NCBI GenBank assembly: GCA_017934475.1
Contig: JAGBJN010000007.1
Coordinates: forward strand, 11,776 to 75,775
DNA from: Clostridia bacterium
Lineage (GTDB): Bacteria > Bacillota > Clostridia > TANB77 > CAG-508
DNA length: 64,000 bases
Reading direction: 5' to 3'
Position numbers and translations under genes: made by a program
In this document: piece after piece, positions 1-18,507 of the stretch
Position numbering within the stretch: position 1 is the first letter of the stretch
How the letters are laid out: each line of letters opens with the position of its first letter
Notes under the pieces: generated by a model
The model's database searches: none
What the model saw: only the letters and a program-made list of their open reading frames with translations
What the model was told of the DNA's origin: nothing

Positions 1-3
1 TAG

Positions 4-461: not shown

Positions 462-504
462 TTAAATAAAACATTAAAAATAATTTATTTTTTGGAGGGA
501 TTAA

Positions 505-1503: not shown

Positions 1504-1522
1504 ATATATAAGGTGATAAATA

Positions 1523-2302: not shown

Positions 2303-2339
2303 AATATAGGACATCTTAAATGAAAGAAGAGTAATATAA

Positions 2340-2879: not shown

Positions 2880-3390
2880 TTTAAAAGAATTAAAAAACGA
2901 AGAAATAGTTAATTTAATAAAAAATGGAAAAGTAGAATTAGCCGACATTGTTGATTCAGGTATATGTCCTACTTGTTTTGATAAACAAAATCATCATGTT
3001 TTATATGGAGATAATACGGATAAAATGATTTTTGAAGATGATAAGTTTGAATGCTTTTTAGTTGGAAATCCAAGAGCAGAGGGACATACTGCTATAAGCA
3101 CAAAAATACATTATAAAGATATGATGGAAATAAATGATGAAACATGTAGTGAGATATTTGTACTAGCAAAAAGAATAATGAATGTATTAAAAAGTGTTTA
3201 TAATGCAGAAAGCGTATATTTATGTACAATGTGTGATGGACCAATGAATCATTTTCATATTCAATTAATTCCACGTTATTCTTTTGAAAAAAGAGGATCA
3301 AAGAATTTTGTAAAACCAAGATTTGAATATAAAGAGGATAAAGAAAAATTATTAGAATTGAGAAAGCAATTAAATTATAAGGAGAACTAA
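2872..3390 (+). CDS. HIT family nucleotide hydrolase
   Basis: CPTC, PRAEGH, HFHIQLIPR histidine-triad variant. Confidence 0.75.
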   Translation: MNNLKELKNEEIVNLIKNGKVELADIVDSGICPTCFDKQNHHVLYGDNTDKMIFEDDKFECFLVGNPRAEGHTAISTKIHYKDMMEINDETCSEIFVLAKRIMNVLKSVYNAESVYLCTMCDGPMNHFHIQLIPRYSFEKRGSKNFVKPRFEYKEDKEKLLELRKQLNYKEN

Positions 3391-3393
3391 ATA

Positions 3394-3690
3394 ATGGCTA
3401 CTTCAAAAGAGTATAAAGATTTTATATTAGAACAATTAGATTTATTAGATAATGTATCATGCAAGGCCATGATGGGAGAATTTTTGTTATATTATAATAA
3501 TATTTTATTTGGTGGTATTTATGATGATAGATTACTTGTAAAAAAAGTTGATACAAATAAAAAATATAATATGAAGGAACAAACACCTTATGAAGGTGCT
3601 AAACCAATGTATTTAGTAGATGACATAGATAATAAAGAATTATTACAAGAGATTGTAATTGAAACTTGTAAAGGATTAGAAAGTAAATAA
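3394..3690 (+). CDS. TfoX N-terminal domain protein
   Basis: KAMMGEFLLY..FGGIYDDRLLVK..PYEGAKPM. Confidence 0.75.
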   Translation: MATSKEYKDFILEQLDLLDNVSCKAMMGEFLLYYNNILFGGIYDDRLLVKKVDTNKKYNMKEQTPYEGAKPMYLVDDIDNKELLQEIVIETCKGLESK

Positions 3691-3717
3691 TGATTTATCA
3701 TTAGGATTGGAGAAAAA

Positions 3718-4146
3718 ATGATATTAATAAGTGCATGTTTAGTTGGTATGAATTGTAAATATAATGGTAAAAACAACTATAACGAAAAAGCATTAGAACT
3801 TGTGAAAAATGGACAAGCAATACCTATTTGTCCAGAACAATTAGGTGGACTATCAACACCAAGAGATCCATCTGAAATAAAAATAATTGATAATAAAAGA
3901 TATGTAATAAACAATAAAGGTATAGATGTAACAAGTGAATTTGTAAAAGGAGCAAACGAAGTATTAAGATTAGTTAAAGAGTTAAATATTGAAAAAGTTA
4001 TATTACAATCAAGAAGTCCATCTTGTGGAGTTGGTAAAATATATAGCGGAAACTTTGATGGAAAAATAATTGATGGAAATGGTATTTTAGCACAAATGCT
4101 TATAGATAATGGAATTGAAGTTGTAGATATTGAAGATTATAAGTAA
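3718..4146 (+). CDS. DUF523 / 2-thiouracil desulfurase family protein
   Basis: ISACLVG..CKYNG, ICPEQLGGLSTPR, SRSPSCG. Confidence 0.85.
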   Translation: MILISACLVGMNCKYNGKNNYNEKALELVKNGQAIPICPEQLGGLSTPRDPSEIKIIDNKRYVINNKGIDVTSEFVKGANEVLRLVKELNIEKVILQSRSPSCGVGKIYSGNFDGKIIDGNGILAQMLIDNGIEVVDIEDYK

Positions 4147-4175
4147 AAAATGAATAAAGGAGCATATTCTATAAA

Positions 4176-4754
4176 ATGAAAAATATAGATTTTGATGAAA
4201 TAGAGATTAAATATAAAGGTTTGATTGATATTGCTAAAAAAAATATGAGCAGCATTAATGATTTTGTACATGATGAAAATCACATGTATGATGTTGTTCA
4301 TTATACAAAAGAATTAATAAAAAGTATAAATGAAGAAGTTAATATAGATGCATGTATAATAAGTGCATATTGGCATGATGTTGGTAGAACCAAAATAAAT
4401 GAAGGACATGAAAAGTTATCTGCTGAAATGTTAAAAGAAGAAATGAAGAAACAAGGATATGATAATAATCTAATAAATAAATGTTATGAAGCAATTGAGT
4501 ATCATAAATGGAGTATGCAACCTAAAACTATCGAAGGGTTAATAGTTAAAGATGCTGATAAATTAGCTTGGCTAGGCATGGGAAGATGGAATGCTTGTAT
4601 TAACAATAATCAAAAGTTAGACAACATACTTGATTTATTGCCTAGACTAAGAAATGAGTTTTTGTATTTTGAAGAATCAAAACTAATATATGATATAGAA
4701 TGTGTAAATTTAATAAAATATTTATATAAGAAATATATTGATAAAATGAAATAA
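4176..4754 (+). CDS. HD-domain phosphohydrolase
   Basis: HDENH..SAYWHDVG..H..IEYH..DADKL. Confidence 0.8.
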   Translation: MKNIDFDEIEIKYKGLIDIAKKNMSSINDFVHDENHMYDVVHYTKELIKSINEEVNIDACIISAYWHDVGRTKINEGHEKLSAEMLKEEMKKQGYDNNLINKCYEAIEYHKWSMQPKTIEGLIVKDADKLAWLGMGRWNACINNNQKLDNILDLLPRLRNEFLYFEESKLIYDIECVNLIKYLYKKYIDKMK

Positions 4755-4818
4755 TGAAGTATATTTAAATGTAATAAAAAAAGAGAAGATTTTTTTATTA
4801 GTAAAAATGCATTTATAG

Positions 4819-4862
4819 AAAGCAAGTGATTTGTTGAAAACCACTTGCTTTTATGTTAAAAT
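4819..4862 (+). promoter_or_regulatory. overlapping intrinsic terminator and sigmaA promoter
   Basis: AAAGCAAGTG/CACTTGCTTT inverted repeat; TTGAAA 4834-39, 17-nt spacer, TGnTAAAAT ending 4862. Confidence 0.6.
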
Positions 4863-4903
4863 ATAGGAAATATTATGTTTTGAAAGAGGCCTAGTGAAAA
4901 TAT

Positions 4904-5263
4904 ATGGAAAATAAAAGAATATTAAGGTTAAAGAGTAAAATATATATTTTAATTATAGTAACTTTTTTAGGTTGTGCATTATTTGTTTTATCAGGCTGTT
5001 CTAGTATTAAATATGAAACTGATAGAGACAAGATTATACAATCACCTGATAATAGCTATTCAATAACTATTAGATATGACTATGTAAGTCGACCAGATAT
5101 TTATAAAGATGGTAAAATAATATTTAAATATGATGGAAGCGGATTTATGGAAAATGTAGATTGGGATGTAGAGTGGTTATCAGAAAAAGATATATTATTA
5201 TATATTAAATCACCACAAAAAGAAAAATATAATAAAGAAAAGTATTATATTACTATTAATTAA
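4904..5263 (+). CDS. putative lipoprotein
   Basis: basic N-terminus, hydrophobic stretch and LSGC lipobox. Confidence 0.6.
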   Translation: MENKRILRLKSKIYILIIVTFLGCALFVLSGCSSIKYETDRDKIIQSPDNSYSITIRYDYVSRPDIYKDGKIIFKYDGSGFMENVDWDVEWLSEKDILLYIKSPQKEKYNKEKYYITIN

Positions 5264-5326
5264 TGGATGTGGCTAACCAAATAAGTAACTATTTTTAGAA
5301 AATATTAAATAGAAAGAAGAAATATA

Positions 5327-5884
5327 ATGATAGATGTTATTGAAATAACTATAGAAGAATTTGAAAATGATATTTATGATAAATATATAGAATTATTTCC
5401 TGAAGAAGAACAAAGAGAATGGAATAAAATTGTCAAAACATCCAAAAAGGGAATAGAAAAGTTCTATAAAATTATCTACGAAAACAAGACTATTGGATTT
5501 TTCTTACTTGAAAAAATAAATGATGATTATCCTTTTTACATAGACTATTTTTCTATTTATAGGGAATACCAAAATCAAGGATATGGAACTAAAGCTATAA
5601 AAGTTTTATTAAGTAAAATTATAAATAAAAAGGGATTAATTGCTGAAATAGAAACAGAAAGTAAAGATAATCCTATTACTATTAAAAGATTCGAATTTTA
5701 TAAAAGATTAGGATTTAAAAAAATTAAATCAGAATATTTATTATATAATGTTTATTTCACACCAATATTATATAATGATTATAAAGAAATAAATAAAGAA
5801 AAATATGACAAAATATTTTTTGATTATTATGCAATCAATTGTGGGGAAAATGAAGTAAAGCGACATTGTAAAATTATAAAATAA
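5327..5884 (+). CDS. GNAT N-acetyltransferase
   Basis: YIDYFSI..YQNQGYGTK..RFEFYKRLGF. Confidence 0.8.
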   Translation: MIDVIEITIEEFENDIYDKYIELFPEEEQREWNKIVKTSKKGIEKFYKIIYENKTIGFFLLEKINDDYPFYIDYFSIYREYQNQGYGTKAIKVLLSKIINKKGLIAEIETESKDNPITIKRFEFYKRLGFKKIKSEYLLYNVYFTPILYNDYKEINKEKYDKIFFDYYAINCGENEVKRHCKIIK

Positions 5885-5962
5885 AACAAATATAAATTAT
5901 GATAAGTATTTATAAAAAAGATTTAAGATTATTAATAAACCGAAATAAATAGGAGAAAAAAT

Positions 5963-8380
5963 ATGGAAGATAAAAAAGTATATAAATATGATGCATTTAT
6001 AAGTTATAGACATTGTAAATTAGATAAATTTGTTGCAGAGAATTTACATAGAATTTTAGAGACTTATGAATTGCCTAAAAATATTAAAGAAAAATTAAAT
6101 ATAAAATCAAAAACAATAAGAAGAGTTTTTAGAGACCAAGAAGAACTACCTTTATCAAGTAATTTAGAAGATCCAATTATAAGTGCTCTAGAAGATTCAA
6201 AATATCTTATTGTTGTTTGTTCTCCAAGATTAAAAGACTCTTTATGGTGTAAAAAGGAGATAGAAACATTTAAAAAATTAAGAGGAAGAAAAAACATATT
6301 TTGTGTTCTAATTGAAGGTGAGCCAGAAGACTCTTTCCCAGAAGAAGTACTTTTTGATGAACAAGAAGTAACTCTAGAAAATGGAGAGAAAGCAGTAGAA
6401 AGAATAGAAGTAGAACCATTAGCAGCTGATGTAAGAGGTGAAACTGAAAAAGAAGTTCTTAAAAAAATTAAAGAAGAAAAGCTAAGATTAATAGCACCAA
6501 TGTATGGACTAGATTATGATGACTTAAGACAAAGACACAAATTAAGAAGACAAAAAAGAATATTAAATATTTCAATTATTACTGCAATAGCATGTTCTAT
6601 TTTTGCTATATATTCTTTAATAATGCTTATCAAAATAAATAGCCAACAAGATATATTAAAACATCATCAAGCATTAACACTTGCTTCTAAAGCAAATGAA
6701 TATATAAAAGAAGATAATAGATATGAAGCAGTAAAAAATGCGTACCAAGCACTTGTGGAATTTGAAGGAGTTAAAATGCCTTATACTCCAGAAGCGGAAT
6801 ATGCTTTATCAGAAAGTTTAGGAATATATGATATAGGTGCTTCATATAAAGCTGTATCACAAATAAATACCAAAGGAGTTGTTGATTTTGTAAAATCAAG
6901 TCCAAATGGTAAATATGCAGCAGTATATGATGAATCAGAGGAAATAACATTATTTGATACAAATACATTAAATATTATTTTAAAATATAATATAAATAAT
7001 ACGTATACAAATGATAAAATGTTTGGATTTGTAGGTAATGATATATTTGCCTTTATTAATAAAGATAAAAATATAAGTTTAGTTAAAACTGAAACAGGAG
7101 AACTATATACAGAGATAAATAATGAAGGAAGAGGCTTTATTTCATTAAGATGTAGTACAAATGGAGAATATTTAGCATATACAGATTATGAAAAAGTTTA
7201 TATTTATGATGTTAAAGAAAATAAGCAAATAGGTAGTATATCTGAAGAGGACAATTTCTTAAAAGATATATATTTTTCAGAAGATTGTAATTATGTGTTT
7301 GCTGCAACACTAAAAGAAAATTATGATATATATAAAGAAGATAGCATAACTATACATGTTATTGATGCAAAAGAAGGAAAAGAAATAAATAGTATTGATT
7401 TAACAGCAAGTGCCTTTTCAGGGGTAGTAACTAAAGATAATAATGCATACATCCTATTAAATAACAGAGTTGATACAGATGTAAGTATTGTTGTACTATC
7501 ATATGACTATATTAATGGAAATATTAATTGGACAAAGATTATTGAAAAGTCTTGGGGAAAGTTTATAACAAGATCATATGCTGAAAGCACAAATAATATT
7601 GCAATAGTAAACCAAGACAATGTAAATATATTAAATGCTGATAATGGAGAAATAGAAACTACATTTAACACAAGTAGTGAAATTTTGACTATATATACAT
7701 TTACAACTAGTGACTTATATATAACAGTATCAAGTGATGGATCTGTAGATTACATGGATGTAGAAAATAAAAATACTATTGAATATGATGGAAAATATGA
7801 GCTTAATTTAAATGAATATATAGATGTAGAAAAAACAGAAAATGGATTAATATTATTACCATATAATGAAAATAGATTAATAATATATGATGAAAAAGCT
7901 AATAAAGATGCAAAATTAGAAGATATAAGTCTTGATTATCCAAAAAAAGATAATGTTTCAGTTACAGAACAAAAACAGTTAATTGAAGATTATGATATTA
8001 TAAATAAAAATTTAATTAGTAATATTATTTATGATCAAGATAAGAAATTAATATTTGTAAATTATAAAAATGAAGATATTGCAATATATAATGTTGAAAC
8101 AAAAGAACTAATAAAATTATTAAACAATGTAGGAAAGATAAATCATTATTTTGGTAAAGACAAAAATGATAGAATTTATATAGGAGATATATCAGATACA
8201 TATATTCTAGATAAAGATTTCAATAAAGTTGGACATATAAAAAGTTTAAGAAAGTTAGAACAAGATAAAGTTATAATTGCAAATAATAGTAAATTTTATT
8301 CTTTAAAGATATATAATCTAAATGAACTATTAAATGAGGCAAAAGAACTAATTAATAACAAAAATAATGATAATAACTAA
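5963..8380 (+). CDS. TIR domain - transmembrane helix - beta-propeller-like protein
   Basis: YDAFISYRH..VFRD..ALEDSKYLIVVCSP..SLWCKKEI (TIR_2 with Glu); hydrophobic helix at about aa 200-222; WD40-like strands (SPNGKYA, STNGEYLA, FSEDCNYVF). Confidence 0.8.
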   Translation: MEDKKVYKYDAFISYRHCKLDKFVAENLHRILETYELPKNIKEKLNIKSKTIRRVFRDQEELPLSSNLEDPIISALEDSKYLIVVCSPRLKDSLWCKKEIETFKKLRGRKNIFCVLIEGEPEDSFPEEVLFDEQEVTLENGEKAVERIEVEPLAADVRGETEKEVLKKIKEEKLRLIAPMYGLDYDDLRQRHKLRRQKRILNISIITAIACSIFAIYSLIMLIKINSQQDILKHHQALTLASKANEYIKEDNRYEAVKNAYQALVEFEGVKMPYTPEAEYALSESLGIYDIGASYKAVSQINTKGVVDFVKSSPNGKYAAVYDESEEITLFDTNTLNIILKYNINNTYTNDKMFGFVGNDIFAFINKDKNISLVKTETGELYTEINNEGRGFISLRCSTNGEYLAYTDYEKVYIYDVKENKQIGSISEEDNFLKDIYFSEDCNYVFAATLKENYDIYKEDSITIHVIDAKEGKEINSIDLTASAFSGVVTKDNNAYILLNNRVDTDVSIVVLSYDYINGNINWTKIIEKSWGKFITRSYAESTNNIAIVNQDNVNILNADNGEIETTFNTSSEILTIYTFTTSDLYITVSSDGSVDYMDVENKNTIEYDGKYELNLNEYIDVEKTENGLILLPYNENRLIIYDEKANKDAKLEDISLDYPKKDNVSVTEQKQLIEDYDIINKNLISNIIYDQDKKLIFVNYKNEDIAIYNVETKELIKLLNNVGKINHYFGKDKNDRIYIGDISDTYILDKDFNKVGHIKSLRKLEQDKVIIANNSKFYSLKIYNLNELLNEAKELINNKNNDNN

Positions 8381-8452
8381 AAAGTATCAAAAATAACATA
8401 ATATTTGAAACTTAGTAATGATAGTTAAACTTTATAAAAACAGGAGAAATAT

Positions 8453-8518
8453 ATGATAAATGATTTTGATATGCTTATGAAATCATTATCAAATAAAAAA
8501 GGAAAAGAAAATGAATAG
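8453..8518 (+). pseudogene. 21-aa mini-ORF (MINDFDMLMKSLSNKKGKENE) carrying a copy of the RhuM-family gene 3' end
   Basis: 8461-8499 matches 12999-13037 at 38/39 nt in the same reading frame; AGGAG RBS at 8442; overlaps the Nudix ATG at 8511. Confidence 0.6.
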
Positions 8519-9128
8519 TAGGGAAATATTAGAAAAAATAAAAGCACTATCAAAAGAAGAAAAAAGAAAACTTAATTATGATAAATTAAAAGAAATAATG
8601 GAATATATGACTCCAGATGAAATAATAGAATTAAGTAATATAATAGGATATCCAGTATTTACAAGAATGTGTATGGGAGTGTTACAGCATAAATTTGTTT
8701 TATTACAAGATGGAGCTGCTGCAATAATTATTAATAATGAAGGAAAAATATTATTACAAAGTAGAGCAGATAGAGATTTATGGGGATTGCCAGGTGGGTG
8801 TCAGGAACTAGGAGAAAGATTCAAAGACACAATAATTAGAGAAGTCAAAGAAGAGACAAATTTGGATGTTGAAGAAAAAGATTTGGAACTAATTGATATA
8901 GTTTCAGGAAATAGTAGAAGAAATAGTTATCCAAATGGAGATGTTGTAATTAATAATACAGCATTATATTGTATAAGAAAATATTCTGGAGAATTGAGAT
9001 GGGATGAAGAATCAAAAGAGATGAAATTTTTTGATTTAAATAATTTACCTAAAAATCAAAATGATCCAGATTTAATAGAGATATACATGGAATATGAAAA
9101 AAGAAAATCAAAAGATTTTGAAAGATAA
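8511..9128 (+). CDS. Nudix hydrolase
   Basis: Nudix box GGCQELGERFKDTIIREVKEETNL. Confidence 0.85.
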   Translation: MNSREILEKIKALSKEEKRKLNYDKLKEIMEYMTPDEIIELSNIIGYPVFTRMCMGVLQHKFVLLQDGAAAIIINNEGKILLQSRADRDLWGLPGGCQELGERFKDTIIREVKEETNLDVEEKDLELIDIVSGNSRRNSYPNGDVVINNTALYCIRKYSGELRWDEESKEMKFFDLNNLPKNQNDPDLIEIYMEYEKRKSKDFER

Positions 9129-9145: not shown

Positions 9146-9280
9146 AAGGAAGTAAGTAATATGGAAGATAAAAAAGAAAAGTTGCCAAGTACAATGATTC
9201 AGTGCGATAAACCAATTTATATAAACATTAACTCAAACCTTTGAAAACACTGGAATTTTTATGTTGAGATTTTTACATTT
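9146..9280 (+). repeat. cassette junction J1 (rbgA-like 5' end | TG 9203-9204 | conserved right arm, type alpha)
   Basis: AAGGAAGT, ATG 9161 MEDKKEKLPSTMIQ-TG|CGATAAACCAATTT..; right arm matches J3 at 65/76 nt. Confidence 0.85.
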
Positions 9281-9328
9281 TTAATAAAAAATAAAATTAA
9301 TAGTTAAAAAAATATAGGAGACTATAAA

Positions 9329-10120
9329 ATGTGGGGAGCAATAATAGGAGATATAGCGGGGTCAATATATGAGTTTAAACAATTAAAAGAAGTAAAATAT
9401 ATAAAGTGTGATGAAATAATTCCAGAAAAAGGTTTTTTTAGTGATGATACAATACTTACAGTTGCAATTGCTAATGCTATTGAAACTGATAGAGATTATG
9501 AAAAATATCTGAAACTATATGCGAAAAAATATGAAAACTATAGACCTGATTTTGAACCATATTTTCGAAGTATTTTTTCACCAGGATTTATAAAATGGGT
9601 AAATGGGCAAAAAGATGGAAATAGCATAGGGAATGGCGCTATGATGAGAATATCACCTGTTGGATATATGTTTGATTCAGAAAAAGAAGTAATCGAAAAT
9701 GTAATACTTGCAACTAAACCATCACATAATTCAGAAGAAGCAATAGAATGTTCAAAAATCATAGCACTTATAATTTATTATGCGAGACAAGGATGGCCAA
9801 AAGATGAAATACTAAAAAAACTTAATATTCAGCTACAATATAAGTCTTTTGAAAAATTCAATGTTACTTGTAAGGAAACTATAGATAATTGTTTATATGC
9901 ATTATTTGCATCTAATAGTTTTGAAGAAAGTATAAAAAGGGTAATATCTTTTGGAGGAGATACAGATACAAATGCTTGTATAGTTGGTTCAATGGCTGAA
10001 GCTATGTATGGAATAAATCCAGTATTAATAGAAGAAGTAAAATTTAAAATACCAAAAGAATTTACAGATATAATAGAAAAAGGATATAAAATAAAAAAGA
10101 TAGAAGATAATGAAAGATAA
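9329..10120 (+). CDS. ADP-ribosylglycohydrolase (DraG/ARH family)
   Basis: GAIIGDIAGS, FSDDT, SIGNGAMMRISP, GGDTDTNACIVG. Confidence 0.9.
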   Translation: MWGAIIGDIAGSIYEFKQLKEVKYIKCDEIIPEKGFFSDDTILTVAIANAIETDRDYEKYLKLYAKKYENYRPDFEPYFRSIFSPGFIKWVNGQKDGNSIGNGAMMRISPVGYMFDSEKEVIENVILATKPSHNSEEAIECSKIIALIIYYARQGWPKDEILKKLNIQLQYKSFEKFNVTCKETIDNCLYALFASNSFEESIKRVISFGGDTDTNACIVGSMAEAMYGINPVLIEEVKFKIPKEFTDIIEKGYKIKKIEDNER

Positions 10121-10130
10121 AAGATAAAAT

Positions 10131-10247
10131 GAAGTGATATAGATGAACGATAATAAAACTAACATTAACTGGGGTATCGGTATTTAAGAAAACCCTGACT
10201 CAATGCATTGAAAATACTTACTTTTTTATGCTTAGATTTTTACACTT
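10131..10247 (+). repeat. cassette junction J2 (TG 10170-10171, right arm type beta)
   Basis: GAAGTGATATAG-ATG 10143 MNDNKTNIN-TG|GGGTATCGGTATTT..; aligns without gaps to the J1, J3 and J4 arms. Confidence 0.9.
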
Positions 10248-10277
10248 TTTTATAAAAAATAAGAGAAAGAGGAAAAA

Positions 10278-11318
10278 ATGAAATATATAGAAAGAACAAG
10301 CAAGTTAATTAAAGATTATTTTAGTATATTATCCCAAAACTATCCAGATTGGCTAGATGAATACATTGAAACAGAAAGAATGTTAAAACAGCAATATATA
10401 AGTGTTACATGTGGTAAGATTTATTCAAAATTATTTAATTATAATGATTATAGCTCATTAGATCATTCAATAGCAGTAGCATTAATAATTTGGAATTTTA
10501 CACATGATAAAAAGCAAACTTTATCAGGATTATTTCATGATATTGCAACACCTGCATTTAAGCATTGTATAGATTTCTTAAATGGTGATTATATGAACCA
10601 AGAATCGACAGAAGAATTGACGAAAACATTAATTAAAGATTCAAAAGACATAATGAAATTACTTGAAAGAGATAATATAGAATTAGATGAAGTTTGTGAC
10701 TATCATATTTATCCAATTGCAGATAATGATACACCAATGCTTTCTGCTGATAGATTAGAATATTCATTATCAAATGATTTAATAGTATTTAAAACAAATA
10801 CACTCGAAGATATTAGAGAAATATATAATGATATAGAAGTTCAAACAAATGAAAATGGAATTATAGAATTAGGTTTCAAAACAAAAAAGATAGCAAGACA
10901 ATTTGTGAAAAATACTTCTAGATTATCAGTAGCTTATCGAGATGATGCAACTAGATTTTATATGCAAGCTATTGCTGATATATTAAGAAAAGTAAGTGAA
11001 GATGGATTAATAAATAAGATAGATTTATACGAATTAAAGGAAAGTGAAGTAATAGATATTATAAAAAAATCAAACTATAGTGAAGCGTTTGAAGAATTAA
11101 TAAATGCAACAAAAGTACATACTTCAACCGAAGAACCAAAAGATGTTTACTATGTTAAGCATGGCGCAAAAGTAAGATATATAGATCCACTATTTAATGG
11201 AAAAAGAATATCTAAAGAATGTAAAATTGCACAAAAAATGATAGAAAAAAATTTATCATATAATATGGACAAGTATGTTTTTTTAGATAAAAGCTTAAAT
11301 ATATTAAATGAAAAATAA
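10278..11318 (+). CDS. HD-domain phosphohydrolase (dNTPase-like superfamily)
   Basis: SSLDHSIAV..GLFHDIATPAFKH..SADRLEY. Confidence 0.8.
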   Translation: MKYIERTSKLIKDYFSILSQNYPDWLDEYIETERMLKQQYISVTCGKIYSKLFNYNDYSSLDHSIAVALIIWNFTHDKKQTLSGLFHDIATPAFKHCIDFLNGDYMNQESTEELTKTLIKDSKDIMKLLERDNIELDEVCDYHIYPIADNDTPMLSADRLEYSLSNDLIVFKTNTLEDIREIYNDIEVQTNENGIIELGFKTKKIARQFVKNTSRLSVAYRDDATRFYMQAIADILRKVSEDGLINKIDLYELKESEVIDIIKKSNYSEAFEELINATKVHTSTEEPKDVYYVKHGAKVRYIDPLFNGKRISKECKIAQKMIEKNLSYNMDKYVFLDKSLNILNEK

Positions 11319-11323
11319 AGCGT

Positions 11324-11440
11324 AAGGAAGTGATATAGATGGAGAATAGTACAAACATTAACTGCGAAAAACCAATTTATAGAAACTTTTACTCAAAGCG
11401 TTGATAATACTGGATTTTTAATATTGAGATTTTTACATTT
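11324..11440 (+). repeat. cassette junction J3 (TG 11363-11364, right arm type alpha)
   Basis: AAGGAAGTGATATAG-ATG 11339 MENSTNIN-TG|CGAAAAACCAATTT.. Confidence 0.9.
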
Positions 11441-11460
11441 TTTATAGAAGGAGAAGAATT

Positions 11461-11898
11461 ATGGAAAATAAATATGAATTTTTTATAGCTGGAAGAAATA
11501 GAAATAAAGAAAATATATTAAAAATATGTGATTTATTTGATAAATATAATATATCTTATTATTGCTTTTTGAAAAATGAAGATAGTTGGGGATATGGAAA
11601 TAAAAATCAAACACAAGAAGAAAAGCAACGAGAATTTGAATCATTAGATTTAAAAAGTGATATTGTATTGAATTTGTTTAATCAAGATTTAGAAGGGGAA
11701 AAGAGTTCAAAAAACTTTTTACTAGTATTACCGGCTGGAAAAGCAGCACATATAGAATCAGGAATAGCATATGGACTAGGAAAAAAATGCTATGCTATTG
11801 GAGAATATGAAGCAACAGATACTTTATATAATATATTTGAAAAAATTTTTGATAATGAAAATCAATTAGAAGAATTTTTAAAAGAGTATAAAGGATAA
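11461..11898 (+). CDS. nucleoside 2-deoxyribosyltransferase-like protein
   Basis: FFIAG..DL..LLVLPAGKAAHIESGIAYGLGK (E-x-G-x-A motif). Confidence 0.6.
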   Translation: MENKYEFFIAGRNRNKENILKICDLFDKYNISYYCFLKNEDSWGYGNKNQTQEEKQREFESLDLKSDIVLNLFNQDLEGEKSSKNFLLVLPAGKAAHIESGIAYGLGKKCYAIGEYEATDTLYNIFEKIFDNENQLEEFLKEYKG

Positions 11899-11912
11899 GC
11901 TTAGATTAGAAT

Positions 11913-12029
11913 AAGGAAGTGATGGAAATGGAGAATAGTACAAACATTAACTGGGGTATCGGCATTTTAGAAAAACCTAGCTAAAAGTATTGGAAACACA
12001 CACTTTCTTAAAAATAGATTATTACATAT
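11913..12029 (+). repeat. cassette junction J4 (TG 11952-11953, right arm type beta)
   Basis: AAGGAAGTGA..ATG 11928 MENSTNIN-TG|GGGTATCGGCATTT..; left 24 nt identical to J3, right arm matches J2 at 56/76 nt. Confidence 0.9.
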
Positions 12030-12057
12030 TTAAGAAAAATATAAAAAGGAGGCAGTT

Positions 12058-13050
12058 ATGGATAATAAAAATGAAGTTTTGATTTATGAAGATAAAGATG
12101 GTATTACAAAAGTAAATGTAACATTCACTGATGAAGATATTTGGCTTACACAAAGTCAATTGGCAGAAATATATAAAACATCTCGTGAAAATATTACAAT
12201 GCATATTTCTAATATTTATAAAGATAATGAATTACCTAAAGATTCAACTTGTAAGAAATTCTTACAAGTTCAAAATGAAGGTGCAAGAAGCGTTAAAAGA
12301 AATATTGACCACTATAATTTAGATATGATAATTGCCTTAGGATATAGAGTTCAATCAGAAATAGCAGTTAGATTTAGAATATGGGCTACTCAAAGATTAC
12401 ACGAATACATACAAAAAGGTTTTACAATGGACGATGAAAGATTAAAACAAGGTGGCAATAGATACTTTAAAGAATTACTACAACGAATTAGAGATATTCG
12501 TTCAAGTGAAAGAAACTTTTATCAACAAGTAACAGATATATATGCAACAAGCATAGATTATGATCCAAGAGCAGATATAACTAAAAAGTTTTTTGCAACA
12601 GTTCAAAACAAACTACACTATGCAGTACATGAACATACAGCAGCAGAATTAATTTATGACAGAGTAGATAATGAAAAAACTTATGTTGGTATGACAAATT
12701 TTAAAGGAGATTATGTTACAATAGATGATGTAAAAATTGCCAAAAACTATTTATCAGAAATTGAATTACAAAGACTAAATTTACTAGTATCACAATTCTT
12801 AGATTTTGCAGAATTACAAGCGTTAGAACAAAGAACAATGAAAATGCAAGATTGGGTAGAAGAATTAGATAATCAAATATTACTTAATAGAAGAAAAATA
12901 TTAGAAGGTAATGGTAAAATATCACATGAAGAGGCAATAGCAAAAGCAGAAAAAGAATTTCAAATATATAGAGAAAGAGAAATGAAAGAATTACAAAGTG
13001 ATTTTGATATGCTTATGAAATCATTACCAAATAAAAATGAAAGTGAGTAA
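12058..13050 (+). CDS. RhuM-family (virulence protein) DNA-binding protein
   Basis: WLTQSQLAEIY..HISNIY..YNLDMIIALGYRV..FRIWAT..KGFTMDDERLK..IRDIRSSE. Confidence 0.85.
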   Translation: MDNKNEVLIYEDKDGITKVNVTFTDEDIWLTQSQLAEIYKTSRENITMHISNIYKDNELPKDSTCKKFLQVQNEGARSVKRNIDHYNLDMIIALGYRVQSEIAVRFRIWATQRLHEYIQKGFTMDDERLKQGGNRYFKELLQRIRDIRSSERNFYQQVTDIYATSIDYDPRADITKKFFATVQNKLHYAVHEHTAAELIYDRVDNEKTYVGMTNFKGDYVTIDDVKIAKNYLSEIELQRLNLLVSQFLDFAELQALEQRTMKMQDWVEELDNQILLNRRKILEGNGKISHEEAIAKAEKEFQIYREREMKELQSDFDMLMKSLPNKNESE

Positions 13051-13059
13051 GAAGTTAAT

Positions 13060-13449
13060 ATGAAAAAAATAATAATTGCTGGTTCTGCAAAGTTTTACAA
13101 AGAAGCACTAGAATTGAAAAAAGAATTAGAAAATATGAACTATAATGTAATAGATTATCCAAGAAATATAAATGCAAACATTGAAGAAGAATATAAACAA
13201 GCATATGAAAGATTTTATGATAGTTTAAATAAAACAGATGATTTAATTTTATTAAATTTAGATAAAAATGGAATAGAAGGTTATATAGGGTATGAATCAT
13301 TTGCAGAATTAAGTAATTTGGTGGTAAAGAAAATACAAGAAGATAATAATCATAAAATATATATCTACAAGATGCCAAGTAAAGAAGTTGGATGTTATGA
13401 TGAAATAAAACATTTCTTAGAACTAGGATATATTGAAATATTTAAATAA
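13060..13449 (+). CDS. hypothetical protein, NDT/flavodoxin-like fold candidate
   Basis: IIIAGS..D.LILLN..GYIGYESFAEL pattern. Confidence 0.45.
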   Translation: MKKIIIAGSAKFYKEALELKKELENMNYNVIDYPRNINANIEEEYKQAYERFYDSLNKTDDLILLNLDKNGIEGYIGYESFAELSNLVVKKIQEDNNHKIYIYKMPSKEVGCYDEIKHFLELGYIEIFK

Positions 13450-13591
13450 AGGAAGTGATAAAATGGCTAACAAAGATAATAATAAAGAAGGGTTTTCTAA
13501 AATGTCGATCAACTGGGATAGTACGAATTATCTAAACACTTCTGAAAAGTATTAGAAAATCAACATTTTTTGAAAATTTTAATCTTCGTGA
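13449..13591 (+). repeat. cassette junction J5 (TG 13514-13515, divergent right arm)
   Basis: AAGGAAGTGA..ATG 13463 MANKDNNKEGFSKMSIN-TG|GGATAG..; AAAGTATTAGAAA in register with J4 AAAGTATTGGAAA. Confidence 0.8.
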
Positions 13592-13641
13592 TTTAATATA
13601 AATTATATAAAATAAATTAGTAATCGAAAAAAGGAGAAGAA

Positions 13642-14181
13642 ATGGATAATTATATAATAATACATGGTAGTTTTGGATCAAAAGACGGAAATTGGTTTCC
13701 ATGGCTAAAAAATGAATTAGAAAAAGATAATAAAGATGTTGTTGTACCACAAATGCCAATTGGAGTAGAAAACCAGAATTTTGAAAATTGGTCCAAAGTG
13801 TTAAATGAATTGAATATAAATCATAATACTACTATAATTGCACATAGTATAGCGCCAATATTTGTATGCAAGTATTTAATTACAAATAAGATTAAAGTTA
13901 AAAAGCTTATATTTGTTTGTGGATTTAATAATTATTTAGGGATAGACAAAGAATTTGATGCAGTTAATGAACCAATGTTTATAGATAATTTTGAAGATAT
14001 AAAAGAATATTGTAACGATATTATTTGCTATTATTCAGATAATGATCCATATGTTAAATTTGAAACAGAAAAAGCATTTGCAGATGCTATTTCAAATAAT
14101 CAGTATGTAATAAAAAATGGTGGACATATAAATACTGAAAGCGGGTATACAAAATTTGAGGAAATATTGAGAGTACTATAG
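13642..14181 (+). CDS. RBBP9/YdeN-family alpha/beta hydrolase
   Basis: IIHG..NWFPWL..IAHSI..SDNDPYV..GGHIN. Confidence 0.85.
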   Translation: MDNYIIIHGSFGSKDGNWFPWLKNELEKDNKDVVVPQMPIGVENQNFENWSKVLNELNINHNTTIIAHSIAPIFVCKYLITNKIKVKKLIFVCGFNNYLGIDKEFDAVNEPMFIDNFEDIKEYCNDIICYYSDNDPYVKFETEKAFADAISNNQYVIKNGGHINTESGYTKFEEILRVL

Positions 14182-14196
14182 AAGGAGGAGAGGTTA

Positions 14197-15021
14197 ATGA
14201 CACTTTTAGCTTCTTGGGCTGCAATTGATACACATGGTACATCATCTGCTTATATTGTTTCTGATAGTAGAATAAGTTGGGGAAATAAAAAAAATTTTGA
14301 TTTTGGGAAAAAAGTATTTGCATCAAAAAAATATCCGGAAATATTTGGATATGCTGGAGATGTTTTATTTCCATCAATAGTCTTATCTCAAATAGTAGAT
14401 ATGATAGATACAGATGTACTATTCAATGAATCTATGAAATGTTCAGAAAAGAATAAGATTGTTTATGAAAAACTTCAGTATTCATTTTCAAAATATCCTG
14501 ATGTATATGGTGATAATCCAATTCAAATTATACATATATCAAGAGATACTATATTTGATAAATATCCAGTTTTTCATCATTATTTATTAACATGGAATAG
14601 AAAATATGGATGGAGCAAAGAAGAAAAAGTGTTTCCAACTAAATCTGGAATTTTGAATGTTTTAGGATCTGGAAAGGAAGAGTTTAATAAAAACTATAAT
14701 GAAAGATATCAACATTGTAGAAACAAATCTACAAGTAGAAATGTTTTTCATTGTTTTATAGATACATTGTATAATATACAGGATACTATGTGCGGAGGGC
14801 CGCCTCAATTGGTAGGAATATACAGAAAACCCAATACAGCTGCACAAAATTATGGAATTGTATATAATCAAAAAAGATTTTTGTTAGGAATGGAAGTTCC
14901 TAAAGAATCTATGTATAATAAAGTTGAATGGCGTAATGAAAATTTTGAATTATGTGATGGAGTATTAAAGAAAAAATTACAAAATGCTTCTAGTCAAAAA
15001 AATTTGATACGTCGAAATTAA
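14197..15021 (+). CDS. hypothetical protein with proteasome-beta/Ntn-hydrolase-like signature
   Basis: N-terminal M-T, SDSR, K..F, GYAG, LGSG, D..CGG motifs in the order seen in HslV, Anbu and proteasome beta subunits. Confidence 0.55.
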   Translation: MTLLASWAAIDTHGTSSAYIVSDSRISWGNKKNFDFGKKVFASKKYPEIFGYAGDVLFPSIVLSQIVDMIDTDVLFNESMKCSEKNKIVYEKLQYSFSKYPDVYGDNPIQIIHISRDTIFDKYPVFHHYLLTWNRKYGWSKEEKVFPTKSGILNVLGSGKEEFNKNYNERYQHCRNKSTSRNVFHCFIDTLYNIQDTMCGGPPQLVGIYRKPNTAAQNYGIVYNQKRFLLGMEVPKESMYNKVEWRNENFELCDGVLKKKLQNASSQKNLIRRN

Positions 15022-15142
15022 TTAAGGCAACTCCCTGGAAGCTATAAAAAGCTGCGAGGTGCTATGTCTATCTGGAGCAAATTGCTCCAGTAGACTACTA
15101 GGGTATTAACATAAAAATAATATAATTAGAAAGAAGGAATAT

Positions 15143-16357
15143 ATGATTAATATAAACAACAAAATTTGGGATAAATTAAGACTTAAAGATGTAGAAAAAT
15201 ATTTAGATACTATAGAAGATGATGAAACATTTTTTATGGAATTTAAGGAAGAAGATATAAGAAATGTACAATTAACAAAAGAAATTTCTGCATTTGCAAA
15301 TTCGTTTGGAGGGTATGTTTTTTTAGGCGTAAACGATTCTAAAAAAATTGTTGGATGTAGTAGCAAGTGGACAGAATTAAGAATAAATACAATAGTATGT
15401 AATGGAATTTCTCCTATTCCACAATTTGATATAAAAAAATTTAAGCTTAAAAATTCAAATACATTATATATTATAAAGGTAGAAGAGGGGGTAAATCCTC
15501 CATATATTACGAATGATGGATATATATATCATAGAGTATCATCTTCATCAGACAGAGTGAAAGATGCAAATACGCTTAATAATTTATACTTGAGAAATCA
15601 GAATAACATAAAAGATGTTGAAAATAAAATATATATTCCAGAAATATCAGGTACAATTCCAAATAATTTGTGCGGTTATGTTGATTTTGGATTTTCTTTA
15701 ATTTCTAAAAATATTGAAAAAACAAAAGAAAAAGTTAGAAAAGCTGATATTGAGAAGATATCAGAAAAATTAAAAGAATATAAACAAAAATATAGTATTT
15801 CAAAAGTAGGATATTCACTATCTATAACTATAGGTGAGCCTATAATGAAAATGGGAGATCAACCAATTTTAACAACTGGAGGACTTTCAAATTTTATGGA
15901 AATACTGCCAGATGGTAGTTTTAGGTGTAGAATAATTATTTGTTCAGAAAATGATAGCAGTATAGCAAATATTTCTTTAATAACTATGATACATTCGTTA
16001 TTTAAAGAAATATATGAAGTAGTATTTGGAAATAATTTTGTTTCGAATTTTATTCAAGCAAAAAAATATGAAAAGCTTACGGTTTTAAAACTGTTTCAAC
16101 CTAAAATAGTAGTAACAGGAGAATCAAAATATGTAGAAAGATTTAACAAGTTATTTAATGATCATATTATAAAATATGGTAATAATATAATTTCTACTAA
16201 TAATAGAATTCCTTTAAATGGGTTTGTTAATATAGATAAAAGCTTGTTTGATTTAAATAAAGTAAAATTTAATAATGATAACTTATATGGCCAATTGTTT
16301 TATACTAGTTATTTTTTACTTGGATATATTGATGATTTTTATATAGATAATGATTAA
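15143..16357 (+). CDS. AlbA_2 (Schlafen-like) domain protein
   Basis: ETFFMEFKE..KEISAFANSFGGYVFLGVND..PPY..YHRV. Confidence 0.8.
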   Translation: MININNKIWDKLRLKDVEKYLDTIEDDETFFMEFKEEDIRNVQLTKEISAFANSFGGYVFLGVNDSKKIVGCSSKWTELRINTIVCNGISPIPQFDIKKFKLKNSNTLYIIKVEEGVNPPYITNDGYIYHRVSSSSDRVKDANTLNNLYLRNQNNIKDVENKIYIPEISGTIPNNLCGYVDFGFSLISKNIEKTKEKVRKADIEKISEKLKEYKQKYSISKVGYSLSITIGEPIMKMGDQPILTTGGLSNFMEILPDGSFRCRIIICSENDSSIANISLITMIHSLFKEIYEVVFGNNFVSNFIQAKKYEKLTVLKLFQPKIVVTGESKYVERFNKLFNDHIIKYGNNIISTNNRIPLNGFVNIDKSLFDLNKVKFNNDNLYGQLFYTSYFLLGYIDDFYIDND

Positions 16358-16366
16358 GGAGTTTAA

Positions 16367-17572
16367 ATGGGATATAATGTAGCAGCATATTTGAGATTAT
16401 CAAAAGAAGATAATGAAAATATGGAATCAAATAGTATAATTAATCAAAGAGAATTAATAGAACAATATATTAGAAGTAAAAGTGATTTACAATTAGTAGA
16501 TTACTATATTGATGATGGGTATAGTGGTACTAATTTTAATAGACCAGGATTTAGAAGATTATTACAAGATATGAAAAATAAAAAGATTAATTGTATAATT
16601 GTAAAAGATTTATCAAGATTTGCAAGAAGTCATATAGAAGCGGATATGTATTTTGAAAATATCTTTCCTGCCTTGAATATTAGATTTATATCTGTGATAG
16701 AAAATATAGATAGTTTTGAAAATCCAGATTCAATGGACAACCTTATTGTTCCATTTAAAAACTTATTAAATGATGCTTATGCAAAAGATATATCTAAAAA
16801 GGTAAGAAGTGCATTATTAACTAAAAGATTAAATGGAGAATTTATTGGAACTTCTGCTACATATGGATATTTAAAAGATCCAAAAGATAAACATAAATTA
16901 ATAATTGATAAAGTTGCGTCAAAATATGTTATTCAAATATTTGATAGTGCGAAGAAAGGAAAAACTGCAAGTGAAATAGCAAATGAGTTAAATAAAAGTG
17001 ATGTATTAACACCATATACATATAAAGTCAAAAATGATAATATTGGAGTAGATAAAAAGTGGAATGCCAAAATGATTAATGTAATACTTCAAAATAGAGT
17101 ATACATTGGCGAATTAATTCAAGGTAAAAAGAAGGTAGAAAATTATCGTACACATAAACTGGTTTCAACCAATAAAGATGAATGGATAATAACTGAAAAT
17201 CACCATGAGCCAATTATATCTAAAGAAGATTTTGATAATGTTCAAGAAATAATTAAAAATAATAAATGTGCTAGAAGTAATAAAGAAAAAGATTTATTTT
17301 ATAGTTTTTTGAAGTGTGCAGATTGTGGAAGTGCATTCACATTAAGAAAAGTTAAAAATTATGAATACTATCATTGTACGTCGTATGTAAGAAATGGCTC
17401 ATGTACAAACCATTCTATAAGAAAAGATAAACTAGTTGGATTAGTAATTGAAGAACTAAATAAAAAGTTTAAAAGAAATAAAATTAATGTTTTAACAAGA
17501 GATATTTTATTAAAAAATATAAATAGTATCATTATATTTCAAAATGGAGAAGTTACAATAAATTTCAAATAA
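16367..17572 (+). CDS. large serine recombinase (resolvase + recombinase + zinc ribbon), short C-terminus
   Basis: AAYLRLS (catalytic Ser12), DDGYSGTNFNRPGF, VKDLSRFAR, YGY, HEPIIS, CADCG..C..C. Confidence 0.95.
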   Translation: MGYNVAAYLRLSKEDNENMESNSIINQRELIEQYIRSKSDLQLVDYYIDDGYSGTNFNRPGFRRLLQDMKNKKINCIIVKDLSRFARSHIEADMYFENIFPALNIRFISVIENIDSFENPDSMDNLIVPFKNLLNDAYAKDISKKVRSALLTKRLNGEFIGTSATYGYLKDPKDKHKLIIDKVASKYVIQIFDSAKKGKTASEIANELNKSDVLTPYTYKVKNDNIGVDKKWNAKMINVILQNRVYIGELIQGKKKVENYRTHKLVSTNKDEWIITENHHEPIISKEDFDNVQEIIKNNKCARSNKEKDLFYSFLKCADCGSAFTLRKVKNYEYYHCTSYVRNGSCTNHSIRKDKLVGLVIEELNKKFKRNKINVLTRDILLKNINSIIIFQNGEVTINFK

Positions 17573-17650
17573 AGGAGTGAATATAGATGGAGAAAGAACA
17601 AGAAAATAGTTATCACAAAATCAACCTTAACTGGTATCCAGGACATATGG
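17572..17650 (+). other. attR-like site: element-supplied rbgA RBS and N-terminus | TG | rbgA body
   Basis: AAGGAGTGAATATAG-ATG MEKEQENSYHKINLN-TG|GTATCCAGGACAT; same layout as the J1-J5 left arms. Confidence 0.75.
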
Positions 17651-18507
17651 CAAAAACTAAAAAACAAATAATAGAAGATTTGAAGTTAATAGATATAGTT
17701 GTAGAAATATTAGATGCAAGAATACCAAAGTCTAGTAGAAATCCTGATTTGGCTGTATGGACAAAAGGAAAGAAAAAGATAATAGTGTTAAATAAATATG
17801 ATTTAGCAGATGAGAAAGAAAATAAAAAATGGATTTCATATTTTCAAAAACAAGGGATGTCTGTTGTACTTACTAATTCTGTTTCAGGTGATGGAATAAA
17901 TAATGTAATAAAAGAAATAGAAAAAGTTGGTGAAGAAAATAAGACAAACTTTGCTCAAAAAGGTAGAACAGGTAGAGCATTAAGAGTAATGGTAACAGGA
18001 ATTCCTAATGTAGGTAAATCTTCTTTTATAAATAGAATAACAAAGAAAACATCAGCTGGTGTTGGAAATAAACCAGGCTTTACAAAACAAAAACAATGGA
18101 TAAGAGTTAATGAAAAGATAGATTTAATGGATACTCCAGGTATTTTATGGCCTAAATTAGAACCAGAAGAAGTTGCGATTAATTTAGCTATAACTGGTAC
18201 AATAAAAGACGAGATAATTGAAAAGATTGAGGTAGCATATTATTTACTAAAATATTTACTAGAAAATAATAGAGAAGAACTTTGCAACAGATATTCTTTA
18301 AAAATAGAAGATATTGATGAAATATTAAGTAATGAGAATCAAATGGAAAATGAAAATATAATGGAAGTATTATATTTAATAGGTAAAAAGAGAGGTGCTC
18401 TTGTATCAGGTGGACAAGTTGATGAAGACAAGGTTGCAAATCTTTTACTAGATGAATTTAGAAGCGGAAAACTTGGAAAAATAACTATTGAGAAAGTTGG
18501 AGATTAA
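17587..18507 (+). CDS. rbgA: ribosome biogenesis GTPase RbgA (YlqF)
   Basis: NWYPGHMAK, DARIP.SSRNP, NKYD, GIPNVGKSS, DTPG. Confidence 0.97.
   Translation: MEKEQENSYHKINLNWYPGHMAKTKKQIIEDLKLIDIVVEILDARIPKSSRNPDLAVWTKGKKKIIVLNKYDLADEKENKKWISYFQKQGMSVVLTNSVSGDGINNVIKEIEKVGEENKTNFAQKGRTGRALRVMVTGIPNVGKSSFINRITKKTSAGVGNKPGFTKQKQWIRVNEKIDLMDTPGILWPKLEPEEVAINLAITGTIKDEIIEKIEVAYYLLKYLLENNREELCNRYSLKIEDIDEILSNENQMENENIMEVLYLIGKKRGALVSGGQVDEDKVANLLLDEFRSGKLGKITIEKVGD

Follow-up and report, generated by a model that had tools for sequence, protein, structure and literature searches.

The 64,000-nucleotide stretch analysed here (the window; positions 11,776 to 75,775 of contig JAGBJN010000007.1, assembly GCA_017934475.1, from a Clostridia bacterium of the CAG-508 lineage) carries, at the start of rbgA, the gene for ribosome biogenesis GTPase A, a tandem array of small gene-bearing units. 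We consider it likely that genes are captured here site-specifically, by a short large serine recombinase that is encoded in the last unit. Comparison of the window with related loci shows that one unit follows another head to tail, with each joint at an invariant TG that supplies bases 1 and 2 of the rbgA Trp codon, and that every unit has the order arm, cargo, spare rbgA 5' end, the latter made up of a ribosome-binding site (RBS), an ATG and a leader.

A first-pass annotation of the window had described five junctions of common layout upstream of rbgA, and all five were located where it had placed them. Each consists of a RBS, an ATG, a short leader ending in I-N or I-Q, the TG and an A+T-rich arm, all read on the plus strand. 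Junction J1 (9146..9290) has its ATG at 9162, the leader MEDKKEKLPSTMIQ and TG at 9203-9204; in J2 (10121..10257) the leader is MNDNKTNIN and TG is at 10170-10171; J3 (11319..11450) and J4 (11899..12039) both carry the leader MENSTNIN, with TG at 11363-11364 and 11952-11953, respectively; and J5 (13450..13601) has the leader MANKDNNKEGFSKMSIN and TG at 13514-13515. The leaders of J1 to J5 are 14, 9, 8, 8 and 17 codons long. The live attachment site (17573..17650, plus strand) repeats the left half of the five junctions, as seen on reading positions 9000-18000: a RBS, an ATG at 17587 and the leader MEKEQENSYHKINLN, contributed by unit 5, precede TG at 17632-17633, after which the sequence runs on as GTATCCAGGACATATG, the native rbgA codons W-Y-P-G-H-M. 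The target gene itself occupies 17587..18507 on the plus strand. The unit lengths given in the annotation (967, 1193, 589, 1562 and 4118 bp) are correct, and several of its details need amending. An arm is present as claimed, but its conserved span is ~80-90 bp (about 85 bp) and not about 76 bp; the RBS of J2 is GAAGTGA, not AAGGAAGTG; the left half of J1 belongs to a common cassette-borne leader type and is not necessarily the original chromosomal rbgA start; and the insert is not confined to 9146-17650, since the conserved gene on its left flank lies 25.3 kb upstream of the live TG.

To find arms elsewhere we used an nhmmer profile that started from J1-J4 and was iterated with related loci, in place of a strict core regular expression, which missed the CAG-TG and TCA-TG types and was too loose inside genes. 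The profile matches J1 at E 2.2e-17, J2 at 2.9e-16, J3 at 5e-19, J4 at 3e-15 and J5 at 1.9e-7. Over the whole 1,543,275-bp genome, both strands, it detected only the five sites at E < 0.1, the next-best matches having E = 0.12 and 0.38. In ungapped comparisons of the 80 nt after TG, the arms of J1 and J3 are 85% identical and those of J2 and J4 72% (78% over 40 nt), and the arms share 31-44% with the rbgA coding sequence. The J5 arm is more diverged, as had been noted, with 46-54% identity to the other arms, yet the iterated profile matches it. The left halves of J3 and J4 are 90% identical over 30 nt and their arms merely 47-55%, so that the two sides of the TG are unlinked even inside this window. 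By eye, the proximal arm consensus, CGAtTTATggAAAc, resembles the rbgA sequence that follows TG, GGACATATGGCAAAAAC; this suggests that the arms may be derived from the target, or that both may be read by the same protein surface. Single-strand folding of the five arms gave nothing better than shuffled sequences (z = -0.65 to +0.16), and the sites are thus presumably double-stranded. A distal arm block, TTTTTACAT, at ~+68 to +76 from TG, is conserved as strongly as the core-proximal part. It lies far outside the usual half-site of a serine recombinase and may be a promoter element or a site for an accessory protein.

The first-pass annotation had predicted that breakpoints would fall at the TG, and across loci this is where like sequence switches to unlike. 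TG was at the predicted place in 36 of the 38 profile matches; matches lacking it (L065:3539 and L074:10860) and junctions within 60-150 nt of a locus start, depending on the analysis, were left out of the junction statistics. At the 86 junctions retained, the triplet before TG is AAC in 55, AAT in 12, CAG in 7, TCA in 4 and another in the rest, and the base after it is most often G (61), then C (18), A (4) and T (3). When the 60-nt halves on either side were compared over 3540 inter-locus pairs, 34 pairs had a right half at least 90% identical and a left half at most 55% identical, 13 showed the reverse and none reached 90% on both sides. Past the TG, identity does not continue at all in 20 of the 34 pairs, and in 11 of the 13 it extends for 0-1 nt. 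When the halves were cut to 30 nt, 49 + 24 pairs were discordant at the TG and one was concordant; with the anchor moved 30 nt to the right, 2 + 6 were discordant and 42 concordant. These comparisons show that, at the level of sequence, left and right halves of the junctions vary independently of each other from genome to genome. A crossover at a 2-bp core, as large serine recombinases use, is suggested in silico: TG is constant, the bases that flank it are not, and like sequence gives way to unlike at this dinucleotide. What is more, 68 of the 86 internal spare ends have RBS and ATG in frame with the TG and no stop, compared with 8 and 2 in the other two frames; unused spare starts are therefore kept intact.

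Scanning relatives upstream of rbgA showed that cassette number, order and content vary, as had been predicted. We located rbgA in 96 of 100 sampled genomes of the family and fetched ~12 kb upstream for 60 of them. A regular expression for the WYPGHM start was passed by 49 of these, which together with the window and three earlier loci made 53; the 11 left out for want of a match were L042, L047, L049, L050, L069, L071, L072, L075, L092, L094 and L095. Clustering of open reading frames (ORFs) revealed that in 48 loci the left side of the rbgA locus is occupied by a conserved gene for a membrane protein of ~160 aa. From its stop codon to the live TG the distance is 24-351 bp in 15 loci, 707-1668 bp in nine and 2.2-9.2 kb in 24, the shortest gaps, down to 24 bp, accompanying the leaders MNINW or MSINW. 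Since rbgA follows the membrane-protein gene by only 24 bp in unoccupied genomes, the cassettes interrupt an operon. The site is a hot spot, with gaps from 24 bp to 9.2 kb among the 48 loci as against 25.3 kb in the window genome (G000), where the membrane-protein gene is at C9:3622-4149 of the contig, C9. Nine loci with gaps of 2.9-9.2 kb gave no match to the arm profile; these may hold other arm families or arm-less cargo.

Arms were found upstream of rbgA in 15 of the 53 family loci, with 11 junctions in G005, seven in G059, at least four in G074 and three in G063, that is, up to 11 junctions in 12 kb. With metagenome contigs and species-representative genomes added, and two duplicates removed (L151, equal to L036, and L138, equal to L035), the collection comprises 44 loci and 85 units of 381-5484 bp each. 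Exactly one ORF (at least 60 aa) is present in 38 of the 85 units, and the cargo of ~83 lies on the rbgA strand. The cargo is diverse: 193 ORFs fall into 104 clusters, 77 of which are singletons. The commonest Pfam families among 93 cluster representatives are GNAT (8) and NUDIX, ASCH and peptidase S51 (3 each). Recurrent cargo includes RhuM (10 loci), KilA-N (9 loci), Bro-N, a protein like uracil-DNA glycosylase, SWIM with a trypsin-like protein, AAA_21 and the YhcG nuclease, and part of the cargo matches candidate defence families in PADLOC. Judged by record title, the hosts of arrays are uncultured gut Clostridia, Clostridium sp. (e.g. CAG:575) and some metagenome-assembled genomes of Bacilli or Tenericutes. 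Arms resemble each other more within one array than across genomes, as in G074. A scan of metagenome contigs for RbgA found none from the same species, the best match being 64% identical.

Of the 96 genomes with rbgA, 14 have a contig that breaks off ~700 bp or less upstream of the rbgA match. Among these are G036 and G068 (0 bp), G094 (33 bp) and G070 (64 bp), as well as G061, G086, G014, G090, G037, G071, G030 and G010, where the match stands at a contig start. This suggests that repeats or strain heterogeneity break assemblies at the site.

The recombinase gene (16367..17572, plus strand) encodes a protein of 401 aa with the Pfam domains Resolvase (PF00239, 5.9e-22), Recombinase (PF07508, 5.2e-22) and Zn_ribbon_recom (PF13408, 6.9e-15). 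Its 13 intact relatives are 397-412 aa long and share a conserved C-terminus, and R10, S12 and the cysteines C317, C320, C337 and C346 are invariant in 13 clade members. The closest solved structure of the catalytic domain is that of TnpX (2mhc, E 1.1e-25). In phage integrases a long coiled coil that imposes direction is located after the zinc ribbon. No such coiled coil was found here by alignment end, clade length or structural model: the alignment covers residues 14-392 of the 545-aa SPbeta integrase and our protein ends 13 residues later, and an AlphaFold model (mean pLDDT, the predicted local distance difference score, 67; C-terminal blocks 82-93) has after the zinc ribbon only the helices 353-368 and 378-384 and a hairpin. 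The top Foldseek matches of the model are the integrases of SPbeta, phiC31, Bxb1 and LI (486-596 residues). The 401-aa protein is the only large serine recombinase in G000; the genome has 12 tyrosine recombinase genes (PF00589), none of them on contig C9.

With the recombinase protein we retrieved 80 loci from 185,579 species genomes. Matches reach the recombinase C-terminus at 26 of these loci, and in 20 of the 26 an rbgA start is found on the same strand, 60-4242 bp further downstream; of the remaining six, four reach a contig end or further cassettes, and the others are L194 and L195. Among the other 54 loci an rbgA start was seen in three. These counts show that the recombinase clade is dedicated to the rbgA site. 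Recombinase units share the J5 type of arm, which differs from the J1-J4 type of small cassettes, and they usually have a KilA-N gene directly after the arm, a gene that is missing from the window copy.

Some further observations concern the recombinase units. In L098 extra arm-less genes are present at 9462-9962 and 4665-5519, a NUDIX gene between recombinase and spare start and a KilA-N gene after the arm. In G000 a close homologue of this NUDIX gene, likewise starting MEKRDLYD, directly follows the membrane-protein gene (C9:4212-4712). In L034 (G074) a 70%-identical recombinase with an internal TGA (11095-12303) lies in a unit that is not the last one, and the unit that follows, 929 bp long, carries a minus-strand ORF.

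The distribution of the recombinase unit speaks for movement. Hosts whose RbgA has 51-64% identity to that of G000 carry a recombinase that is 81-94% identical. Positions 13610-17597 of the window are 90.5% identical to L098 over 4 kb, and the adjoining rbgA genes 80%. Between L098 and L131 the units are 96.7% identical from 3 nt before the TG and rbgA is 77% identical. L098 and L107 agree at 99.3% from ~100 nt left of the unit, where the leader type is the same, through rbgA and 7 kb beyond, and are unrelated further upstream. As reconstructed from these alignments, the clade moves between hosts inside its own cassette of 3.5-5.5 kb. In a further pair, L137 and L139, a 95% block begins 7 nt before the TG, spans the unit and reaches ~830 nt into rbgA, with the downstream genes at ~78%; here the target gene seems to have travelled along with the element.

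We also compared the window with assembled contigs, at 88% likeness or more, from four ruminant-gut metagenome assemblies of four independent studies (X5, X6, X7 and X9). Four other sequencing runs, X1-X4, contain the window in full and may be its source. Joints with 21-letter sides (e.g. 8866 to 14703 and 11854 to 17275) were disregarded as unreliable, and uncovered parts were not interpreted. Contigs stop at 10167, 11364, 13520 and 17633: at J2, X5 contigs end at 10167; at J3, an X5 contig ends at 11364; at J4, an X7 contig diverges at 11951; and at J5, X7 and X6 contigs start at 13520. One contig of 4122 nt corresponds to unit 5, another passes from 17633 into an arm instead of rbgA, and others bring different leaders onto 17627-17629. 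One joint connects the left half of J2 to the J5 arm over a common AACTGG, its side of 26 letters being below our caution line of 30. These contigs represent alternative neighbourhoods in other populations, not in vivo excision. Circularization of units and their mobilisation in trans are inferred.

The junction structure and the properties of the enzyme allow us to propose a mechanism. A circular unit would carry an attP-like site composed of spare 5' end, TG and arm, and the enzyme would bind sites that have a leader end as left half and either rbgA codons or an arm as right half. The recombinase would cut both partners at the TG and join the circle into the live rbgA start; the spare 5' end of the unit would then become the new translation start of rbgA, and the old start would stay behind as an internal junction. 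Each internal junction would be a complete site again, and since there is no coiled coil to impose direction, any two junctions could recombine without a directionality factor. One or several cassettes could in this way be excised, lost or re-inserted, those lacking a recombinase being moved in trans. The cassettes would be expressed by read-through from the operon, which is probable given their operon location, their co-orientation and the lack of visible terminators. Over time, arms would be deleted and cargo fixed as ordinary genes, and the recombinase cassette would often be lost or broken. In its fullest form the proposal is that of a 'serine integron': a coiled-coil-less enzyme of ~400 aa would, with no need of a directionality factor, take up, release and rearrange cassettes of one gene each, acting in trans at a 2-bp core in the start of an essential gene. 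Each cassette would bring a replacement start, the arms would be target-derived mimics, expression would be by read-through, and the system would have spread horizontally among small-genome gut Clostridia of many genera and among neighbouring lineages. We regard this complete version as evenly balanced between right and wrong.

Several findings count against a locus built purely by cassette exchange. Common cargo ORFs are 87-92% identical between arrays, and the corresponding arms 53-75%, with homology ending at the RBS or stop codon and not at the TG. The RhuM ORF of the window, for example, is 92% identical to that of the G059 unit 6465-7609, where the arms agree at 53-57% and the likeness ends with the stop codon. 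For the unit-3 ORF and its counterpart in the L132 unit 4581-5295 the identity is 87%, and for the arm 70-75%. Ruminant-gut contigs show arm ends (11442-11446) running straight into the RBS of other ORFs (10266, 12044, 9139), and some units contain genes without an arm of their own (13060-13449 in the window; NUDIX and KilA-N in L098). Exchanges at the level of ORFs, joints between arm end and RBS, and arm-less genes together imply that recombination at these points, plus deletions, also remodels the locus. Among the assembled contigs there was no circle or excision product. No recombinase match was found in the fetched stretch of 11 of the 15 family arrays; G059, with seven junctions, has no close recombinase homologue in a genome that is 100% complete; the short recombinase is present in just five of 101 sampled family genomes; and copies are broken in G074 (the internal TGA), L105, L120, L136, L145 and L197. 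With a recombinase so rare and so often broken or missing, many arrays may be inactive. Finally, coiled-coil deletion mutants of phage integrases are reported to be poorly active or inactive: LI integrase without its coiled coil recombined both substrate types at low efficiency, and phiC31 integrase without it was inactive (PMC10754689).

One other explanation of the array is that complete recombinase-bearing elements accreted in tandem at rbgA and that internal deletions left stumps in the manner of the cis-mobilizable elements (CIMEs) of streptococci, the small units never having been mobile alone. Decay of full-length elements had been raised in the first-pass annotation as a threat to the cassette interpretation; there is no sign of it in units 1-4 of the window, but recombinase remnants do occur in a few units elsewhere (L067, residues 145-219 and 229-401; L143, residues 270-401), so that some units are decayed autonomous elements. 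Recombinase units also differ by gain and loss of arm-less genes, and deletions do take place, as witnessed by the leftover 3' end of a RhuM gene and by a TIR gene onto which a spare start has been fused (both described below). On the other hand, 38 of the 85 units hold a single ORF and sizes go down to 381-700 bp; intact ORFs cover 74-88% of window units 1-4, none of which has a recombinase match, leaving no room for remnants; the arms of small cassettes (J1-J4 type) differ from those of recombinase units (J5 type); G005 and G059, with 11 and seven junctions, have no recombinase; and 68 of the 86 internal spare ends are still intact. We judge accretion alone to be unlikely as the origin of the array.

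Still less probable, in our assessment, is a fossil array that is reshuffled only by homologous recombination or gene conversion between junction repeats, with a recombinase that integrates its own unit only or is inactive. Such a history would account for the cargo exchanges at ORF level, for the greater likeness of arms within an array than to those of other genomes (G074 again), and for joints at conserved arm ends and RBS blocks, namely those from 11442-11446 to 10266, 12044 and 9139 and one from 13451 to 10131 with nine common letters. It does not account for TG-precise switches without flanking identity in 20 of 34 pairs, which homologous recombination would not produce, nor for a near-identical recombinase unit in distant hosts with its left boundary at the TG, and the recombinase ORF in the window is intact and conserved. 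That the junctions were made by another enzyme, a tyrosine integrase or a host Xer-type system, with the serine recombinase as mere cargo, we hold to be very improbable. Tyrosine-integrase integrative and conjugative elements (ICEs) of streptococci do target the rbgA 5' end (PMC4701971), and G000 has its 12 tyrosine recombinase genes; none of the 12 is on contig C9, however, and the short serine recombinase clade is tied to the rbgA site. In addition, 2 bp alone are invariant among variable bases, which fits the core of a serine recombinase and not the 6-8-bp overlap region of a tyrosine recombinase. A gene-capture locus run by the short serine recombinase, remodelled in part by recombination and deletion, remains the likely reading.

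The suggestion in the first-pass annotation that no such system has been described was too strong. The closest described system is that of the staphylococcal cassette chromosome (SCC) and SCCmec composite islands, where a large serine recombinase acts at an attachment site in coding sequence and cassettes without a recombinase lie in tandem. In SCC, CcrAB or CcrC integrate at the 3' end of rlmH. The likeness extends to an attachment site in a conserved housekeeping gene whose end is replaced by the element. Ccr moves tandem cassettes beside SCCmec, and tandem arrays between repeated attachment sequences, recombinase-less neighbours mobilised by Ccr, and defence cargo are reported (bioRxiv 10.1101/2023.03.17.533233). 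The present locus differs in that its target is the rbgA 5' end and not the rlmH 3' end, so that each unit must bring RBS, start codon and leader of an essential gene. Its units are 0.4-5.5 kb long and often hold a single ORF, whereas SCC elements are roughly 10-60 kb; its arrays reach 11 junctions in 12 kb with cargo co-oriented in the operon; and it has one short coiled-coil-less enzyme in place of Ccr proteins of 450-560 aa.

Integrons and clusters of attC sites lacking an integrase (CALIN) are similar in having small, mostly single-ORF, co-oriented and functionally diverse cassettes with arms that are homogeneous within an array, and in having one recombinase for many recombinase-less cassettes, arrays without a recombinase occurring too. 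However, the array enzyme here is a serine recombinase and not the tyrosine integrase IntI, the arms lack the single-strand fold of the hairpin attC sites, insertion is at a codon of an essential gene and not at an attI beside the integrase gene, and the recombinase is itself on a cassette. No counterpart of the integron Pc promoter was identified, the promoter scan being at chance level. Membership of the integrons was rejected, there being no IntI on contig C9 and no folded attC.

The streptococcal rbgA ICEs and CIMEs share the target gene end and the supply of upstream sequence by the element. Tandem accretion in that group leaves att-flanked elements without recombination genes (PMC4701971). 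They differ in using a tyrosine enzyme where ours is a serine enzyme, and the units here are smaller by one to two orders of magnitude. No relaxase or type IV secretion family was seen among the 25 most frequent of 110 Pfam families in 93 cargo representatives, and a prophage or ICE was rejected as there were no such modules among these families. The TnpX/TndX recombinases of Tn4451 and Tn5397 are related, TnpX being the best solved relative of the catalytic domain. TnpX/TndX excise a circle and insert without a directionality factor at a 2-bp core; they are 530-700 aa long and have a GA core and many target sites. The present locus instead has one conserved target, TG as its core and non-autonomous cassettes in arrays. 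The tycheposons of Prochlorococcus use tRNA-gene targets and mostly tyrosine recombinases. They are also larger elements than the present units. They are reported to form hot-spot islands by tandem integration and to have recombinase-less satellites (bioRxiv 10.1101/2020.12.28.424599). We found no description of serine-recombinase cassette arrays at rbgA in the literature, subscription journals being mostly outside the coverage of the search. What is new is the 5'-end target with an obligatory replacement start, the single-gene units in long arrays, the coiled-coil-less ~400-aa enzyme on its own cassette, and the host group.

If active, the system would be a second, mechanistically independent solution to the integron problem of keeping a stockpile of swappable single-gene cassettes, and would achieve it with a serine recombinase and double-stranded sites in uncultured gut Firmicutes, where integrons are rare. 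The locus also shows how the start of an essential gene can be a safe harbour, usable for insertion because every insert must restore the translation start. With GNAT, NUDIX, RhuM, KilA-N/Bro-N, TIR-like and nuclease genes among the cargo, the cassettes may be a store of genes for defence and detoxification. A compact, possibly bidirectional recombinase of ~400 aa with a natural library of site variants could serve genome engineering.

The cargo of the window units lies on the plus strand throughout. Pfam backs most of the labels of the first-pass annotation; 'NDT-like' (nucleoside 2-deoxyribosyltransferase) and 'Ntn-like' (N-terminal nucleophile) have no significant Pfam match and rest on language-model look-alikes. 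Unit 1 carries an ADP-ribosylglycohydrolase (9329..10120; PF03747, ADP_ribosyl_GH, 3e-36) and unit 2 an HD-like protein (10278..11318) with a weak match under the cut-off (PF01966, E 0.0029). In unit 3 there is a small protein (11461..11898), possibly nucleoside 2-deoxyribosyltransferase-like, with no Pfam match and look-alike clusters at 0.93. Unit 4 (12058..13449) contains RhuM (12058-13050; PF13310, 2.5e-108; PADLOC PDC-S05) and, with no intervening arm, a second small protein (13060-13449). In unit 5, 13642..16357 comprises a serine hydrolase (13642-14181), an unknown protein (14197-15021), a hairpin (15018-15125) and a Schlafen/AlbA_2 protein (15143-16357), the Pfam matches of the unit being Ser_hydrolase and SLFN_AlbA_2 plus the recombinase domains.

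Recognisable junctions are confined to the 8.4 kb nearest rbgA, and the rest of the 25.3 kb consists of small co-oriented genes. Positions 1..9128 of the window hold 13 small plus-strand ORFs, arm-less accessory genes that gave no arm-profile match and are probably fossil cassettes. The whole interval (C9:4150-29407, i.e. window 1-17632 and 7.6 kb upstream) has small genes, nearly all on the plus strand, and includes some that by eye appear to be housekeeping genes: an RsgA-like GTPase, a cytidine deaminase and a TrpB-like gene. At 8466-8503, directly upstream of a NUDIX gene, is a remnant of a RhuM 3' end, with 37 of 38 nt identical to 12998-13035; this we take as the trace of a deleted cassette body. 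A TIR-WD40 gene (5963-8380; TIR_2/ThsB_TIR and a beta-propeller) shares in its region 5945-5980 the RBS-ATGGAAGATAAAAAAG block (20 nt) with the J1-type spare start, and it looks as if a spare start codon had been fused onto the next cargo gene upon loss of an arm. The RhuM remnant and the TIR gene start shared with J1 suggest that the arm-less part descends from cassettes.

A scan for promoters found 79 sites against 79 expected, which equals chance, and terminator-like sites numbered 0 against 1.1 expected, a weak difference. The stretch 15018-15125, which separates the unknown ORF from the AlbA_2 gene in the recombinase unit, is G+C-rich in a genome of 26.6% G+C. An Rfam search of window positions 8300-18000, the hairpin included, gave no match at E <= 1. 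The stretch folds into a 13-bp perfect hairpin with a minimum free energy of -32 kcal/mol (z = -4.15; 0 of 200 shuffles as good), and it falls within the block that is 90.5% identical to L098.

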